Shown piece by piece: positions 54,332 through 64,000 of a DNA stretch of 64,000 nucleotides. The stretch is from the NCBI RefSeq assembly GCF_030384885.1, contig NZ_CP128613.1; one strand, written 5' to 3'. The position numbers and the translations under genes were made by a program. The DNA is from Escherichia coli (GTDB lineage Bacteria > Pseudomonadota > Gammaproteobacteria > Enterobacterales > Enterobacteriaceae). Below the pieces are notes generated by a model. The model did not search any database and was not told the origin of the DNA. It worked only from the letters and a program-made list of their open reading frames with translations. The first letter of the stretch is position 1. Every line of letters begins with the position of its first letter.

Positions 54332-54500
54332 ATGTAAAGAACTGTATTGTTTTGTATAATGCAATGGTGACTAATCGCCAATTAATATAAGCACCATCAT
54401 TTCTCCATATTTTTATGTTAGAAGTGACAAGGAGAAATGTAATGTTTCTCTCAGAGAATATAAATCATTCCTTTTGCCCACCTTAATGGTGGGCTTTTTT
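54332..54500 (+). ncRNA. Candidate short transcription unit: promoter (perfect -10 TATAAT at ~54355), 14-codon ORF (MFLSENINHSFCPP, 54442..54486, SD AAGGAG) and intrinsic terminator (54476..54500)
   Basis: TATAAT preceded by TG; then an RBS-plus-mini-ORF whose stop sits inside a GC-rich hairpin (GCCCACC-TTAAT-GGTGGGC) followed by TTTTTT. Confidence 0.35.
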
Positions 54501-54865
54501 ATGCAAAACCTGAACACCCTGTGGTATTCCCCTGGCATTATCACTTTCGCGATTAACCAACAGCCAGACCAGCAAACACGCCACTACAGGCACAGCAAAA
54601 TCCATCAGGCTTGCCACACCCCATGCGTGCGGCTCAAAGCCGCCCCGCCATGGCATATTAATCCGCTTACCATTTTCGAACAGCTGATTGGTTTAGTCCG
54701 GTGTTTCCCTGCTTGCACTTAAAAATGAGCGGATGGGAAACTCTCGAAATGGTTCGTCGATATGCTCACCTTTCAGTCAGGCATTTCACCGCGCACGCGA
54801 GCAAAATCAAAGGCACATGAGGAGAATGTGGTTGACTTAAAAACGAGGAAACTTATTGATTTAAA

Positions 54866-55351: not shown

Positions 55352-56695
55352 TCATTTCTTTGCCGCGCTTTTATTGCACTTCTTACAGCCTTCAATCAAT
55401 TTTTCAGTTATTATATAATAATAAGGAATGTAAATGTTTAACCCGCAAGTTTTAATCGAATCGAAAGCAAGAACTTTCACAATGGATTCTTCTCCATCTT
55501 TCTCCATTAGCAATATATCACTTAAAGGCAAATCATTAGGATTGTAAATCCTCACATCGCCAGGCTGTCTTTCATAGGCTTCGATGTCATCACCTGGTTG
55601 GCCATAGGCTAAATGAGTGGCTTTAATCCAGTTTATTGGTTCAGCATTTTGACACCAGGAGATTATTTTTTCTAATTTTTCAGGTGTGTAAGCTTTTACA
55701 TAATCTCCATGTTTTTCACATCTACCTAGTTCTGAAAAATGGCCCAGGGTGTATTCATAAGAATAATCACCAGCAGTCAATGGTAGTCTAAAGTATTGCT
55801 GAGGCAATGCCTTCTGGACTTTGGTTTTACTCAGCAAATTAAAGGTGATATCATAAAGTTGATATAGACAAACACCCTCTCGATCTGGATATCCATAAGG
55901 CTTGATGTCAGAAAGCATCTCAATATCAGAATTATAAACACTTGCATAATCATCACTTCCAAACATGAAAAAACCTTTTGATAGAATGAATATTGCATTA
56001 GGAAGAACGTTTTTTTCAAAATTCTGCGAGTGAGTTTTTATTTCTTGTACTATGTCCATCCAATCCATATCAGTATCATAGGCGAAGATAATTCCAAAAC
56101 CATTAGTCTGAATTCTCTCCTCTGAATGTATAAATATGTTCTGATTTATACCATGTTTCTTTAGTTTTTTGAATGAGCGGATATTTTCGAAAGCACTTTT
56201 CAGTTCTTTTTTTGTTAGTTTTGACTTAACCTGAATCACACCATAGCAGTACTCCACAGGTAAAACCTCAAAAATTTCCTGTCGCTGCATAAGCGAAAAT
56301 GAATTAAAAGCATCATAAAAAAGAATGTCGATTTCATTACTGAGATGTCCTGAGGTTGACGCTACACGGACACTTGATTTTGAGATGGCATAGCTTTGCG
56401 GTAAGAGTTTATTTTCATTGAAAAAGCATCTTAAGAGTTCCTCTCTGACAGTACCAACATCTCTTGGATGCTTAATATCTTTCGATATTTCAAAATCTTG
56501 AAGCATTTTCCTCTGTAAGTGAATGAACTCCCTTTCAAGACCATAAAATTCTTTATCTTTAGATCTCAGTTTGCTTGCACGAGAAACTTGATCGGATATC
56601 CATTCCTTTGTGCGAGACTCTCTCTCAGCAAAATCATCACGTTGTTTTTTTACAGCACCGGTCAAGCGTTTTCTTGTGTTTTCATTATCGGACAT
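55352..56695 (-). CDS. Hypothetical 447-aa protein of unknown function (AT-rich cargo gene; possible PD-(D/E)xK-like nuclease motif)
   Basis: Long uninterrupted ORF in visibly AT-rich DNA, K/E-rich N-terminus, a segment (…EIDILFYDAF…EYCYGVIQVKSK…) reminiscent of a restriction-endonuclease-like fold; stands alone between a terminator and the repeat/invertase region. Confidence 0.7.
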   Translation of the reverse strand: MSDNENTRKRLTGAVKKQRDDFAERESRTKEWISDQVSRASKLRSKDKEFYGLEREFIHLQRKMLQDFEISKDIKHPRDVGTVREELLRCFFNENKLLPQSYAISKSSVRVASTSGHLSNEIDILFYDAFNSFSLMQRQEIFEVLPVEYCYGVIQVKSKLTKKELKSAFENIRSFKKLKKHGINQNIFIHSEERIQTNGFGIIFAYDTDMDWMDIVQEIKTHSQNFEKNVLPNAIFILSKGFFMFGSDDYASVYNSDIEMLSDIKPYGYPDREGVCLYQLYDITFNLLSKTKVQKALPQQYFRLPLTAGDYSYEYTLGHFSELGRCEKHGDYVKAYTPEKLEKIISWCQNAEPINWIKATHLAYGQPGDDIEAYERQPGDVRIYNPNDLPLSDILLMEKDGEESIVKVLAFDSIKTCGLNIYIPYYYIITEKLIEGCKKCNKSAAKK

Positions 56696-57095: not shown

Positions 57096-57227
57096 CAGTT
57101 TCATTCATGCCGAAATACGGTAAAATCTATAACAGATAGAAATCATTCAATATTCGCACTATCAGAAGCTGGCCAGCCAACCGCGCACGATTTTGCATAC
57201 GACATGCTACGGTTTCATTTATCTCCG
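57096..57227 (+). repeat. Copy B of the ~130-bp imperfect direct repeat
   Basis: See copy A (52924..53053). Confidence 0.5.
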
Positions 57228-57814
57228 ACCGGAAACTTCTTATACAGTGTCGATACACCAACATCATAGATGATCTCCACCTTCTGGCGAGGAACGCCTG
57301 ATGCAATTAATCGCCCGGCCTGCGCCCTTTGTTCTGGTGTAAGTTTGGGACGACGTCCACCAATTCGTCCCTGTGCGCGAGCAACTTCCAGTCCAGCTTT
57401 TGTTCGTTCAACAATCAGTTCTCGTTCCATTTCAGCCAGGGCACCCATCACATGAAAGAAAAAACGCCCCATCGGTGTGCTGGTATCAATAGCATCCGTC
57501 AGGCTGCGAAAATTAACGCCACGTTCGCGCAACTCCTCAACCAGAATGACCAGATGGACAAGCGTGCCGGGACCGGGTTTATTCAGCGCTTCAATCAGGC
57601 GATCGCGCTGGTCAAAGCAGTCATCTCCCACCACATAAGCTGTGATGGACGGGCGGAAAGTGACTTTTCCCAGATCTTCGGTATAGGGCTTGTCGCGGTT
57701 CGGGTATTCATGTGTTTCCACACGGCGACCGGTTCCCGCACTTTCTTCTTCAACCTTAAACGGCACACCTCGAAATGACGCATCCTGAAGCCTGTCTTTC
57801 CACGTCATATACAC
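57215..57814 (-). pseudogene. Pin/Hin/Gin-family serine invertase C-terminal fragment fused to an unrelated N-terminus
   Basis: The C-terminal ~115 aa (…ELRERGVNFRSLTDAIDTSTPMGRFFFHVMGALAEMERELIVERT…RRPKLTPEQ…STLYKK) match the invertase core and HTH; the N-terminal ~85 aa show no resolvase catalytic-Ser region. Confidence 0.6.
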
Positions 57815-57821
57815 TCCGAAA

Positions 57822-57850
57822 ATAAAAAAGCCACCTATTAGAAGGTGGCC
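57822..57850 (-). terminator. Rho-independent terminator of the lipoprotein-like gene
   Basis: Stem GCCACCT / AGGTGGC followed on the minus strand by a T-tract (TTTTTATTTT). Confidence 0.6.
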
Positions 57851-57869
57851 TTGTAATGAATTTTATTAA

Positions 57870-58400
57870 TTAGCGAGTCAGAAACAACGAATCTTTATAC
57901 TTTTGCTGTTGTTCATTTAAATACTTAGCTGTTTCATCGCTGGCAAATGGAAATATTACCGTATTTTTAGGCATGGTAATTTCTTTTTTGTCCAGCGTCA
58001 GAGTAAACATAGGAACATACTGAGCAGAGTAACGCACCGCAGAAACGAGCTCTAGTTTAGACTCTTCAATAACACTTAAATTATCCAGGCTAACTTTCTC
58101 TTCATCTTTTTTCTTTGACGCATTTAAAGTTTTTATTACTTTATTTAATTTCTCCTGAAAATCCTCCTTAAAGTTTTCAGGATTGCCGTCGACAACAAGA
58201 ATCTGTTCACCCTGATTATCTGGAAAAATAATCTTTGCACTTATCAATTTATTTTCTTTATAAACATCACCAAGTTTTATGGCTCCTCCAGATAACTGAA
58301 TAATATGTTCATCTTTAAAGGAGATGTTGCCAGAGATTATGAGAGATGAAAAAATAGCCGCTGCTCCAAGAATTACACTTGCTGTGATATAGCCTTTCAT
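57870..58400 (-). CDS. Hypothetical signal-peptide/lipoprotein-like protein (AT-rich cargo)
   Basis: 176-aa ORF with an N-terminal hydrophobic segment (MKGYITASVILGAAAIFSSLIISG), Lys/Glu-rich, in visibly AT-rich DNA, with its own terminator. Confidence 0.6.
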   Translation of the reverse strand: MKGYITASVILGAAAIFSSLIISGNISFKDEHIIQLSGGAIKLGDVYKENKLISAKIIFPDNQGEQILVVDGNPENFKEDFQEKLNKVIKTLNASKKKDEEKVSLDNLSVIEESKLELVSAVRYSAQYVPMFTLTLDKKEITMPKNTVIFPFASDETAKYLNEQQQKYKDSLFLTR

Positions 58401-58491
58401 TTTTCGCCTATTAACATTTTTCTAAATGTGCATTAATTCTATCACTCTATTTATGACTTACAACCAGCAATACATGTGAGGGGAATCCTGG

Positions 58492-59623
58492 CTACCAAAA
58501 TCGGGTATAGCCAACATCGTGATTTATATCAATGCCACTGGAGCGTGTTTCCGTAACCCGCATACCTGGTGGCATATTTATAAATGATACCTTGATCTCA
58601 CCATCAACTTTTGGCGCGGTAGCTTTATTAATCATGAAGGGATTCGGGCCTGTGGCATCGGAGGCGTTGTTTGCCTGAGCCGGATCCACCGCCGGATAAG
58701 GAGTGTATCCCCGTGCCGGTATTCCCGTCTTCGATATTGTTGAAGGTGGCGCGATCGGTGTTCTGCACCATGTGCAACGGCACCCGGAACAGACGACAGA
58801 TTTCTTCAAGCTGAAACTTGCGGGTTTCCAGGAACTGGCTGTCCTCGGCGTTCAGCGCCATCGACTTCCAGTCCAGCCCCATCTCAAGGATCATCGGGCG
58901 GTGAGCATTACCAAGCCCGGTGTGACGCTCCTCAAAATCTTTCTTCAGGCGCTCATAAGCCTGATCCGACAGCGTCTGTTCTGTACGCAACACACCCGAC
59001 GTCACCGCGCCATTGCTGAACAGTCTGGCCCCGTGCTCTTCGGTCGCAGCTGCCAGCGATATTGCCTCACGGGCATAGGCGATGGGATTCAGTCCCACCA
59101 GACCGTCCAGCGTCAGCGTGCGCACATGCCAGATATCCTCCTGGCTCAGTACATCCGTGGAGCCATCCGGGAATGTGACCTGATAGACCGGCTCCCAGCT
59201 ACTGTTAAGCTTCGGTACCACACAGCCGGGATCGACGGGCAGCAGTTCAGCCACTTCGCCAAATGCTTTCACTTTGTAGGCGTAAAAGTTTCCCCGCAGG
59301 CACAGACAGGTGACCACCAGCTCCCAGAACTCCTGCGGCGTCATATAGCCATTGGGATGCGTGGAGATCAGCTTATGCAGACGTTCGCCAGTGGCTCTCT
59401 GCTTCAGGCTGCCGTTCAGGTGATACAGGTTGCAGGGCAACATCCCGACCGACTCCGCCAGCACCCTGACACAGGAAAAAACCGCCGTCAGTCGCATGGC
59501 CCGCTGGCTGCTGATCTGCTTTCCGGTATAGGTGTCGTAGGACAACCCGATGGCATCCGCCAGCTCTGCTGGCGTGGTCACCGGTGCGTCACTTTTTCGT
59601 TGAAATAATCCCGAAAAGAACAC
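58492..59623 (-). pseudogene. Phage portal protein (HK97 family), frameshifted and truncated
   Basis: ORF 58628..59623 (331 aa) is portal-like until ~58720, where it runs into a low-complexity tail; the continuation lies in another frame (58492..58809). Confidence 0.7.
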
Positions 59624-59805
59624 TATTTACCTCCGCCGACAGACAGCTGTGTACGATCGAGATATCGCGCCACCAGCCACGACCAGAACAGGCACAGCGC
59701 CCCGGCAACAACAAAACCCGCCGGGGGATAAATCAGCCAGGCACCATATGCCAGCAAAAGCGCACCCAGCACGCCCACCAGAGGCGCGAGAATCAGCATG
59801 ATCAT
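59623..59805 (-). CDS. Small hydrophobic protein between portal and terminase
   Basis: 60-aa ORF with two predicted TM helices; stop overlaps the portal start. Confidence 0.4.
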
Positions 59806-59816
59806 AATTACCTCAG

Positions 59817-61550
59817 TTAAAGCGAGCGGATCCCGTAGGACTCAATGTGGTCAGACAGCGTGTCTTCTTTCTCGTACAGCATGGCTCTGCCAACCGCCAT
59901 AATCAGCGCAACTGCACCATCGATTTTGTTTTCCGCCTGCTCTTTGACGGGTTTCACCACATCATCGTTACCCGGAATGGTTTTGCCGACCACGTTGCCG
60001 ATACACCAGGTCATGATGGGATTGCCGTCATGATGAAAGCGCCCCGATTCAATTGCCGCTTCCAGCTCTTTCATCGGGTCGGACATGTTGGTGTAGTTCT
60101 GAATGATAGTGATGGGGTTCAGGTCTTCATCAGCAAGGTCATGTGACAACCCGGTCGCCCCGAAGGGGTCGATGGGTGACTCACTGACCGGGCTGATTTT
60201 GTTCGCCGCTTTGGCCTCCTCGAGGATGTAGCGATAATCCACCTCCGCACCATCGGTAACGGTCAGAACGCCCATTTCCACCCATTTCTGAAAGCGTTCG
60301 GCTGTCCGTCGATCTTCATTTTTCTCGACGCTGTACACCGTGTCATACGGTACCCAGAAACGCGGGGCCACACTGTAGTAATGCGTTTTACCGTCAATCT
60401 CGCGGGTATAAAGTCGCGCCATGCTGTTCATATCCAGCTTACGCGCCAGGTCAAAGGCCAGAATGCACGGCTGCCCCTCGAACTGCTCAAGAGTCAGTGA
60501 TTTATCCTCGCATCTCTGCCAGCTCACCAGGTTGAAATACGCCGAACGCGCCGACACCCAGATATTGAGGTGTTTTGTTTTAAAGACGTTTGCCAGACGG
60601 GCGTTATTTTTCGCACGTTGCTGCTGGCTTAACAAAAACTCGCGATAAACCGACACACCGATATTCGGGTTAGCTTTTTCAAGTACCTGCGGGTCGGTCC
60701 AGTCGTCGCCTTCGTCAACGGTATAGATGATCCCGAACAGTTCATCGTTGGGCACCGAGCCGTTGAGCATCTCGATGACTTCCCGCCGTTTGTCGTAGCA
60801 CGGCCCCTCAATGTTGTACCCGGCGGTGGTAATGGCCCACATCAGTGGCTGGCGTCGCGCCCCCATCCCGGTAAGCATCGTGGTGTAAAGCGCATCTGTG
60901 GCGTGCTCGTGATATTCATCCACCACCGCACAGTGGGGTGATGAACCATCACCGGGGTTACCGATCAGCGGTTCAAACCGCGCACCATCCTCCGGACGGT
61001 TCATGTTTGAGGCGTTAACCTCAATCCCGAACGCTTCCGTCAGCATGGGTGTGCGTTTACACATCAGTCGTGCCGGACGAAAGACTTCCCATGCCTGTTT
61101 CTCCGTCGTGGCACCGGAATACACTTCCGCGCCGAACTCGTTATCACAGGCAAAACAATACAGGGCGACACCGGCAGAGATTGCCGATTTGCCGTTCTTA
61201 CGGGGGATTTCGGTATACACCTCACGGAAGCGGCGCAGCCGGGAGCCTTTATTGACCCAGCCAAACGCGCAGCAGATCACAAAGAGCTGCCACGGCTCCA
61301 GCGTGATGGGCATCCTCTTAAATGCCCACTCACCCTTGGTGTGCGGCAACAGCTGAATAAATTTCGCGGCCCGTTCAGCCAGGTCCTTGTCGAAGCGGTA
61401 ACGAAACGACTTACTTTTTTCCTCCATCAGGTCATCAAGATGGCGCTGGCAGGCCTGAATCACAAACTGGCAGGCCACAATCTTTCCGTGCACGACATCA
61501 CGGGCATACTGATTGGCAGCATTTACGTTGGGGTAAGATTTCCGGCTCAT
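59817..61550 (-). CDS. Phage terminase large subunit
   Basis: 577 aa; ATPase Walker-type region (…EIPRKNGKS…) and C-terminal nuclease region; overlaps the small-subunit gene by 4 bp. Confidence 0.9.
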
Positions 61551-62050
61551 GATTCGATGATTTTCAGAAACGGGTTAGTGGCTTTCTTCTGCCCCGCCAG
61601 GCCAATCAGACGCTGGCGGCTGCTGGGGTCGAGTCCGAGCATTGCCCCCGTACTGCTCATCTCGGACTCCTGTTCTTTTTTGGCGGTCAGCTCCGGATTT
61701 TTGACCATACCGCCCATTGCACCGGTGATGGTGTTGCCCTGTCTGGCAATATTTTTCACGGCACGTCGCCAGAACTCGTAGGCCACGCACCACCGCTCAA
61801 GCACCGCGAGGTCAGTCACGCACAGCAGGCCCTGACCGCAGAGTTCTTTAGTTGTCAGTTGCCACATGATCGTGGCGAGAGGGAGATCTTCTTCAGCGAA
61901 CCACTCCGGTGGCTCAACACCTTTGATGGGCGTAAAAACAGGTTCATCTTTATTCAGGGCTCGCTTGCCGGGGTTTCCGGCCAGCGCCTTGCGCGCCGTT
62001 GGCTTGGGGCGACGCCCGGAACGCCCCGCCGTTCCAGCCATATGCGGCAC
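61547..62050 (-). CDS. Phage terminase small subunit (P27/HK97-type)
   Basis: 167 aa, basic N-terminus, immediately upstream of the large subunit. Confidence 0.8.
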
Positions 62051-62166
62051 TCCTGGTTAAATTTCATTTTTCGCGGGTATAAAAAAACGATGGGGCGGGC
62101 AGTCCGGAAGACGTCAGGTCACAGGGATTTGACCCGCCCCTCCCCTCTGGCAGTGGGAACTGGTTC

Positions 62167-62517
62167 TTACTTCAGCCGTTCACGGGCCGTCTTCGCCTTA
62201 TGACACGGCCAGCACAAACTCTGCAGATTACTGTCGACATCAGTGCCGCCATGCGATTTAGGGATGATGTGGTCAACGGTCTTCGCCTCACGCACCACAC
62301 CAGCACGCAGACATAACTGACACAGGCCTTTGTCACGCTTCAGGACACGCGCGCGGATACTGTCCCACTTCGAACCGTAGCCGCGCTGATGACGGGATTG
62401 TCCAGGTTTGTATTGCTTCCAGCCTTCGCTTTTGTGGCTTTCGCAGTAGCCTGAAGGGTCCGTGGTTGTAAAGCGGCAGCCGCGAACACGGCAGGCTTTT
62501 GGGGTTCGTGGGGGCAT
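62167..62517 (-). CDS. HNH endonuclease (packaging-associated)
   Basis: 116 aa; HNH motif (…VDHIIPKSHGGTDVDSNLQSLCWPCHKAKT…) with a zinc-finger cysteine pair; typical position before terS. Confidence 0.85.
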   Translation of the reverse strand: MPPRTPKACRVRGCRFTTTDPSGYCESHKSEGWKQYKPGQSRHQRGYGSKWDSIRARVLKRDKGLCQLCLRAGVVREAKTVDHIIPKSHGGTDVDSNLQSLCWPCHKAKTARERLK

Positions 62518-63041
62518 ATGTACTCCAATGAAGAAACCAGCGAAATAGCTGCCTTCATTCGTAGTAAACCTTTTTCATCAACGCAGTAATGGATTCTTTG
62601 AAGAGTCGCGATCAATACAACTCACTAATGGAGAGACTTGTCTCACGCATGAGACAAATTTCCCGTTTGATTTAATGGACACTATAGAGGGACAGAATGC
62701 CTTCCTCACTCGAATCACATCAATTAAGGAGGTTCAACATGTTTCATTCCACAAGTCATCAGGCTGTAATTATGGCAGCATCAGTTTGTGCCAAAGACCT
62801 TTTCCGCTTCACTTTGAGCCTGATTCATTTCTACCTGACCGGCTCGCCTCTATCTTTTTAATCCCCGCTTTATCCAAATTGCATTGCCATAATGCCGACA
62901 ACACACTGACATTCAAATCCAGACTACCTCCAATAGTCTGACCGTACACCTATATAGTTTTAATTTTCATCAATCCATTTAACTATCGTTTAATTGTTGT
63001 CACATAGGATTCTGCCGTTTTTAACAATGCAGGATAATAAG

Positions 63042-63335
63042 ATGAAAAAAATGTTGTTTTCTGCCGCTCTGGCAATGCTTATTACAGGATGTGCTCAACA
63101 GACGTTTACTGTTGGAAACAAACCGACAGCAGTAACACCAAAAGAAACCATCACCCATCATTTCTTCGTTTCGGGAATTGGACAGGAGAAAACTGTTGAT
63201 GCAGCCAAAATTTGTGGCGGCGCAGAAAATGTTGTTAAAACAGAAACCCAGCAAACATTCGTAAATGGATTGCTCGGTTTTATTACTTTAGGCATTTATA
63301 CTCCGCTGGAAGCGCGTGTGTATTGCTCACAATAA
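63042..63335 (+). CDS. bor: Bor-like outer-membrane lipoprotein
   Basis: 97 aa from MKKMLFSAALAMLITGC (lipobox); sequence essentially as I recall lambda Bor. The track ORF starts earlier at 62994. Confidence 0.85.
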   Translation: MKKMLFSAALAMLITGCAQQTFTVGNKPTAVTPKETITHHFFVSGIGQEKTVDAAKICGGAENVVKTETQQTFVNGLLGFITLGIYTPLEARVYCSQ

Positions 63336-63366
63336 TTGCATGAGTTGCCCATCGATATGGGCAGCT

Positions 63367-63828
63367 CTATCTGCACTGCTCATTAATATACTTCTGGGTT
63401 CCTTCCAGTTGTTTTTGCATCGTGATCAGCCTCTCTCTGAGGGTGAAATAATCCCGTTCAGCGGTGTCTGCCAGTCGGGGGGAGGCTGCATTATCCACGC
63501 CGGAGGCGGTGGTGGCTTCACGCACTGACTGACAGACTGCTTTGATGTGCAACCGACGACGACCAGCGGCAACATCATCACGCAGAGCATCATTTTCAGC
63601 TTTCGCATCAGCTAACTCCTTCGTGTATTTTGCATCGAGCGCAGCAACATCACGCTGACGCATCTGCATGTCAGTAATTGCCACGTTCGCCAGCTTCAGT
63701 TCTCTGGCATTTTTGTCGCGCTGGGCTTTGTATGTAATGGCGTTATCACGGTAATGATTAACCGCCCATGACAGACAGACGATGATGCAGATAACCAGAG
63801 CGGAGATAATCGCGGTTAATCTGTTCAT
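63367..63828 (-). CDS. Rz: Lysis protein Rz (i-spanin)
   Basis: 153 aa, N-terminal TM anchor and coiled-coil region; start ATG overlaps the endolysin stop (ATGA). Confidence 0.9.
63426..63608 (-). CDS. Rz1: Lysis lipoprotein Rz1 (o-spanin), embedded in Rz in the +1 frame
   Basis: 60 aa with lipobox LVVVGC and proline-rich [15 protein letters not shown], entirely inside Rz. Confidence 0.85.
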
Positions 63829-64000
63829 ACCTCAATCTCTCTGACCGTTCCGCCCGCTTCTTTGAATTTTGCAATCAGGCTGTCAGCCTTATGCTCGAAC
63901 TGACCATAACCAGCGCCCGGCAGTGAAGCCCAGATATTGCTGCAACGGTCGATAGCCTGACGAATATCACCGCGATCAATCATCGGTAAAGCGCCACGCT
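63825..64000 (-). CDS. R: Endolysin R (lambda-type lytic transglycosylase), C-terminal part only; the gene continues past the window end
   Basis: Manual translation of the minus strand gives …[56 protein letters not shown], matching the lambda R C-terminus. Confidence 0.8.

Follow-up and report, generated by a model that had tools for sequence, protein, structure and literature searches.

Phage SfI integrates at thrW and packages its DNA from cos, which lies near, and upstream of, terS (PMC3636060). It belongs to a group, comprising SfI, SfII, SfV, ST64B, phiP27 and e14, whose members have a packaging and morphogenesis module in common (PMC3636060). SfI, SfII, SfIV, SfV, ST64B and phiP27 (an Stx2e phage) share with the lineage described below a module of P27-family TerS, TerL, HK97-type portal and Mu-like contractile tail, and the Shigella Sf phages, Salmonella ST64B and phiP27 are viable. 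The e14 element of Escherichia coli K-12 MG1655 (b1151/b1152) is of the same family, with the same terminase, ymfR and portal genes in the upstream part; there, downstream of ymfR, a multi-kb deletion has brought beeE, which is the first 408 nt of a portal gene, up against jayE, a piece from the interior of the baseplate J gene.

Here we describe a related element in a 64,000-nucleotide stretch of E. coli DNA (contig NZ_CP128613.1), hereafter the window. The element is homologous to the SfI/SfV/e14 group in its packaging and tail modules, with gene order preserved, and its TerS-TerL-portal region is 97-98% identical at the DNA level to those of SfII, SfIV and ST64B. Intact relatives of it are the prophages of E. 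coli EH10-18-47 (NZ_CP063499; site ykgR-ecp-yagU ... thrW-proA) and E. coli C4, which have the same gene order, share 97-99% DNA identity with each retained block and carry the same 176-aa ORF. These two prophages are about 38.7 kb long, with complete head, tail, immunity and replication modules, whereas the window lineage has lost about 25.3 kb. Both the bacterial flank (ykgR..yagU) and the phage end in the window match EH10-18-47, whose prophage ends at tRNA-Thr/proA; the int side of the element lies outside the window. A Logan contig (L007) that is identical to window positions 57611..64000 and extends past the window end reaches int and stops short of the tRNA.

The region 58492..59623 had been read in an initial annotation as a portal gene broken by a frameshift and truncated at its 3' end. 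We conclude instead, with a probability of roughly 95%, that it is a deletion scar in a heavily decayed lambdoid myovirus prophage of SfI/SfII/e14 type, probably at the thrW locus, and that it reflects ordinary decay. Where e14, which sits at icd, joins portal nt 408 to a baseplate gene, in the window element, probably at thrW, portal nt 896 meets the tape-measure gene near its 3' end.

A portal 5' fragment joined to a tape-measure 3' end

Two overlapping minus-strand ORFs in different frames occupy the region, at 58628..59623 (331 aa) and 58492..58809 (105 aa), as the initial annotation had placed them. The first runs from 59623 to a stop codon at 58628, beyond the portal part. It scores 273.8 bits with Pfam PF04860 (E=2.5e-81; curated cutoff 39.1), aligning to profile positions 2-251 of 321, and 187.8 bits with the NCBIfam portal_HK97 profile TIGR01537 (E=2.8e-55; curated cutoff 112), where the alignment takes in positions 3-266 of 343. 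An intact relative covers positions 3-343 of TIGR01537, so that the 331-aa ORF falls short of full-length coverage. Residues 1-299 are 100% identical to the intact 413-aa HK97-family portal of E. coli, WP_000466255.1; past residue 299 the translation diverges into GNTGTGIHSLSGGGSGSGKQ..., an out-of-frame, Gly/Ser-rich tail of 32 aa that ends at the stop. The portal DNA itself spans 58729..59623 on the minus strand and amounts to 896 nt, that is, codons 1-298 plus 2 nt, or the first 72% of the gene.

At the DNA level, homology to the portal genes of SfII, SfIV, ST64B and the E. coli C4 prophage stops at 58728, window positions 59700..58728 being 97-98% identical in megablast comparison with phage genomes. 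No trace of portal codons 300-413 was found in the whole window in six frames (blastn and tblastn). The truncation of the portal at its 3' end, as originally proposed, is thus real, residues 300-413 being absent from the window, and the point near 58720 at which the translation had been said to degenerate can be placed exactly, at 58728/58729, with the Gly/Ser-rich tail of 32 aa following. TerL and YmfR genes lie upstream of the fragment, and the protease and capsid genes expected downstream are deleted. Judged by profile and alignment, 58628..59623 is a fragment of an HK97-family portal gene and not a complete portal. With some 115 C-terminal residues and 77 of the 343 family-profile positions gone, its product is regarded as non-functional and would probably be unable to build a portal, which makes the locus a presumptive pseudogene in a cryptic prophage; the element has, in any case, no capsid genes left.

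The second ORF has a different origin. Residues 28-105 of its translation (58809 to 58492) correspond to aa 533-610 of a 610-aa tail tape-measure protein (BLASTP, 94% identity, E=8e-53), and the ORF aligns with positions 370-440 of 443 of the PHROG tape-measure family phrog_17727 (E=2.8e-29). Window positions 58729..58492 also match the tape-measure 3' end of SfV and SKA5 in megablast. The fragment at 58492..58728 (minus strand) is therefore the last ~238 nt of the tape-measure gene, codons 533-610 plus the stop (79 codons). The first 27 residues of this mechanically called ORF are portal DNA read in a non-portal frame. The N-terminal TP901-type tape-measure domain TIGR01760, which an intact relative carries at aa 46-405, gave no hit in the window fragment; the region that bears it falls inside the deleted DNA described below.

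These assignments bear directly on the reading of the region as one portal gene, cut at its 3' end and split by a point frameshift or a homopolymer error. Two overlapping ORFs on the same strand in different frames, the first ending in a Gly/Ser-rich tail, are what such an event would leave, and the portal had been said to resume within 58492..58809. However, the two ORFs are not consecutive parts of one protein: the downstream one is tape-measure and does not resemble the C-terminal part of the portal (E=1.3), which is missing from all six frames of the window. Moreover, there is no homopolymer at 58720-58735, and the same junction recurs in four assemblies (see below), which leaves no room for the suggested sequencing error. 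A split portal gene has, in our view, practically no chance of being correct; the change of frame is a by-product of a large deletion.

This deletion was delimited against the intact prophage of E. coli C4 (L004) and the intact same-site prophage of E. coli EH10-18-47 (L006, L012). In block maps against L004 and L006, window positions 62543..58728 are collinear with the HNH, TerS, TerL and YmfR genes and portal nt 1-896, and positions 58729..57553 with the final 238 nt of the tape-measure gene followed by a 531-nt ORF and nt 1-256 of the DNA-circularisation gene. A three-way alignment, in which the window was set against the left and right sides of intact L006, shows a clean switch, at which only the dinucleotide TC (plus strand, 58728-58729) is common to both sides. 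The junction reads CCCGTC/TTCGAT, with no inserted DNA, and its 31-mer is unique within the window. Portal nt 896 is joined to tape-measure nt 1598, and 8,237 bp are missing: the 3' 346 nt of the portal gene, the genes for prohead protease, major capsid, head-tail connector, head closure, tail terminator, sheath, tube and assembly protein/chaperone, and tape-measure nt 1-1597, or 87% of that gene. The deleted DNA was not found elsewhere in the window by blastn or tblastn.

Both nucleotides at the join, portal nt 896 in codon 299 and tape-measure nt 1598 in codon 533, are second codon positions, so that the two reading frames do not connect, which accounts for the low-complexity tail of the 331-aa ORF. 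A single illegitimate-recombination event acting through the 2-nt microhomology would have deleted the 8,237 bp; translation from the portal start would then read 32 nonsense codons of tape-measure DNA before halting at 58628, and the tape-measure frame would be left only as an orphan 3' end. As judged from the microhomology, the mechanism was probably microhomology-mediated illegitimate recombination, either by slippage or by end joining.

Lambdoid phages are mosaic, and SfI is reported to combine modules of SfV, e14 and lambda (PMC3636060), so an exchange in which the phage gained an unrelated portal C-terminal module, leaving the gene intact but novel, deserves mention. The sequence after the break is, however, 97.8% identical to the last part of the tape-measure gene and the genes that follow it, with the native order kept; the frame in which it is read is wrong, and the protease and capsid genes, due next, are missing. 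The collinear match of 58729..57553 to the region holding the tape-measure gene, the 176-aa ORF and the DNA-circularisation gene rules out such an exchange for practical purposes, and we assign it a negligible probability. The deletion reading is also the one in which the breakpoint proposed initially for the defective prophage finds its place, comparison with intact relatives having confirmed it.

Occurrence of the junction

Neither a set of 5,426 complete E. coli genomes nor the GTDB species representatives contain the junction. An exact-protein look-up found the 331-aa fusion ORF in four independent Logan assemblies (ERR2987533, SRR18593988, SRR20168666 and SRR17241515), whose contigs are respectively 100%, 99.99%, 100% and 100% identical to the window at the DNA level across the junction, over 5.4-8.9 kb with 0-1 mismatches. 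The reality of the junction rests on these four separate short-read assemblies, which may or may not be related to one another.

An assembler could in principle have fused two related prophage copies and so produced a false junction. This prophage family is often multi-copy in E. coli, occupying a median of 2 places per genome, and Logan contigs break near repeated tail genes. Against this, the two sides share 2 nt only, and we reason that assemblers need long exact overlaps; four separate runs give the same junction; and gene order is collinear, as expected, on both flanks. We therefore hold an assembly artefact to be highly unlikely. The identical junction in four assemblies argues against sequencing or assembly error, and resequencing would not be expected to restore a portal ORF. 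From these comparisons we conclude that the junction is a real, lineage-specific deletion. Its absence from the 5,426 complete genomes gives it modest value as a lineage marker. Portal nt 896 is not a hot spot, since all of the IMG/VR hits to this breakpoint pattern (52/52) are synonymous variants of intact portals.

Further deletions and the genes retained

The scar is not the only one in the element. A 5' fragment of the Mu-type tail gene for DNA circularisation, of about 85 codons, lies at 57557..57808 on the minus strand (PF07157 DNA_circ_N, E=4e-30, and block map). It ends at a second junction, at 57553..57556, where three-way alignment and the block map against L006 show a 4-nt microhomology (GATG) and an in-frame join, with 7,153 bp missing: the rest of the DNA-circularisation gene, the baseplate and tail-fibre genes, the invertible segment and the 5' part of pin. 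Beyond it, at 57215..57552 (minus strand), is the 3' fragment of a Pin/PinE-type serine invertase gene, 98.9% identical in DNA to the pinE region of L006 and matching PF00239 (Resolvase) at positions 79-144 of 145 and PF02796 (HTH_7). Serine invertases carry their active-site serine near the N-terminus; as the Resolvase match begins at profile position 79, this residue would have been in the deleted part. The resulting hybrid ORF (57215-57814) combines about 85 DNA-circularisation codons with the C-terminal ~112 codons of Pin, for 197/199 aa. The same junction is present in the Logan contig L008, where the hybrid is called as a gene. Between the two junctions, 1.2 kb of tail-module DNA survives.

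A third deletion, of 9,936 bp, lies off the window (L007 815-817); it begins within ybcN and ends immediately upstream of int. Genes for recombination, immunity and replication are lost with it, and int now lies beside ninE-ybcO-rusA-Q. In total, three deletions, all of the microhomology type, account for a loss of about 25.3 kb of a prophage of about 38.7 kb, and the lineage keeps lysis genes, packaging genes and AT-rich cargo genes. Having lost its genes for capsid, protease, sheath, tube, baseplate and fibres, the element is, we infer, a cryptic prophage unable to form particles.

The packaging block (59623..62517, minus strand) is intact. It comprises an HNH endonuclease gene (62167..62517), TerS (61547..62041), TerL (59817..61550, with Pfam TerL domains) and a YmfR-like membrane protein (59623..59805), all as ORFs, and is 97-98% identical to, and collinear with, SfII and the E. 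coli C4 prophage. Next to it, at 62544-63432, between the lysis genes and HNH, a Bor/Iss lipoprotein region matches the decayed prophage of strain SCU-118 and not EH10-18-47, which has a DUF6979 gene and a hypothetical gene at this position; by this comparison the region looks like a mosaic moron swap. At the other end, between yagU and the prophage end, the window lacks a stretch that in EH10-18-47 measures 5.5 kb and carries the paoABCD operon and part of a LysR gene; 54430-54811 holds instead a 382-bp segment with an integrase C-terminal remnant. This arrangement of yagU and integrase remnant occurs in 11/5,426 complete E. coli genomes.

Two cargo genes are retained intact on the minus strand. 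The first (57870..58400) is an AT-rich (34% GC) ORF of 176 aa with a hydrophobic N-terminus, a native moron between the tape-measure and DNA-circularisation genes. It belongs to phrog_5485 (E=3.8e-108), gave no Pfam, NCBIfam or PADLOC hit, and has no assigned function. The intact E. coli prophages of C4 and EH10-18-47 carry it at the corresponding place, and SfII lacks it; it survives in three independently decayed copies (window, SCU-118 and CFSAN061772) and is not present in e14, L013 or L015. The second (55352..56695) encodes a 447-aa DUF6602 protein (Pfam PF20247) with a PD-(D/E)xK/NucC-like N-terminal domain, for which PADLOC gives PD_DExK at E=2e-27 and NucC at E=1.7e-16; from these matches it is likely a phage-borne defence nuclease. 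The gene lies at the prophage end, downstream of pin, and stands beside pinE in the intact EH10-18-47 prophage too, although not in that of C4; SfII carries O-antigen modification cargo and not DUF6602. The e14 element has a comparable end, with a pin invertase and nuclease-type cargo in both, but the cargo is mcrA in e14 and DUF6602 in the window, and e14 has kept pinE and the tail-fibre segment intact, whereas pin of the window was truncated by the second deletion.

Intact relatives have the 176-aa ORF and the DUF6602 gene in the corresponding places, so the cargo is native and nothing was replaced. The initial annotation had held that cargo took the place of the downstream head and tail genes; the loss of the head genes and of most tail genes stands, but the replacement does not, the junction being clean and the cargo original to the phage.

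What remains could also have been kept for a function. The N-terminal 298 residues of the portal might, like BeeE of e14, be maintained to hinder the assembly of related superinfecting phages, or for some other host role. In a broader form of this idea, selection would act on a domesticated module made of the Q-lysis-HNH-TerS-TerL block, the 176-aa membrane ORF and the DUF6602 nuclease, with the portal fragment serving as a dominant-negative decoy against SfI/phiP27-type head assembly. The intact HNH-TerS-TerL-YmfR block and portal start, the persistence of truncated portal ORFs in several lineages and the likely defence cargo kept in the remnant would all agree with domestication. Nothing points to expression or selection, however, the C-terminal tail is frame-shifted nonsense, and the portal lengths kept differ by lineage (408 vs 896 nt), which argues against a specific functional unit. 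We thus consider a domesticated portal fragment very unlikely, and the chance that the whole module is under selection to be just as slim.

Ordinary decay remains our reading, and three microhomology deletions in one element show that it was serial and stepwise. In annotation, the locus is best entered as a portal 5' pseudogene fragment and a tape-measure 3' pseudogene fragment with a deletion junction between them, and not as a frameshifted portal. The scar is one more case of stepwise prophage decay, like beeE/jayE of e14 in K-12.

A recurrent endpoint at portal nt 408 in related prophages

Beside the scar itself, the sole item of wider interest is an endpoint that recurs elsewhere in the family. 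Five distinct deletion junctions, all from related prophages, have their left end exactly at portal nt 408, after ...GGCTGTGTGGTA and before CC, that is, at GGTA/CC inside a GGTACC palindrome. They lie at positions 10139 of L011, 6785 of L002, 6426 of L003 and 4383 of L013, and in L015, after ...GTGTGGTA. Their right-hand partners are the capsid gene (L013), a tail-assembly gene (L003, SCU-118), the tape-measure gene (L002, CFSAN061772), baseplate J (the beeE/jayE junction of e14) and ymfQ (L015). SCU-118, at the same locus as the window, and CFSAN061772, at the ssrA locus, resemble the window in having joins of portal and tail fragments, the 176-aa ORF and a DNA-circularisation 5' fragment; their breakpoints, at which portal nt 408 meets either the tail-assembly gene or, at -978 nt, the tape-measure gene, are independent of that of the window. 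Position nt 408 corresponds to window position 59216 (region 59211-59222, portal nt ~403-413), which is intact; the portal break in the window lies at a different site, nt 896.

The left arms of the nt-408 junctions differ at up to 14 of 426 nt, and the microhomology ranges from 0-1 to 4 nt. No junctions 1 or 2 nt beyond nt 408 were found, nor any mirror-image junctions retaining the right side of nt 408, and a metagenome scan for nt-408 junctions returned e14 alone. Several causes were considered, and none obviously accounts for the endpoint. A hairpin is not indicated, as the site folds no better than shuffled sequence (z=0.39); cleavage of KpnI type at GGTACC does not fit, the prophage having 7 such sites and the right-hand ends not lying at GGTACC; the nearest Chi is ~100 nt upstream; and cos lies upstream of terS in this phage group (PMC3636060).

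Other portal fusion ORFs exist in public data (P0003-P0008, P0055 and P0083), among them a 622-aa form with a prohead protease domain, a 646-aa form with tail-sheath domains, and forms of 451 aa and 519 aa; a protein search with the full portal returned mostly full-length portals. Some of these fusions may be further deletion scars, and the 622-aa form would equally be given by read-through or a frameshift between the adjacent portal and protease genes.

From the coincidence of the endpoints, a site-specific break or nick at portal nt 408 is suspected. The portal genes of the SfI/e14 phage family appear to be preferred targets of deletion.
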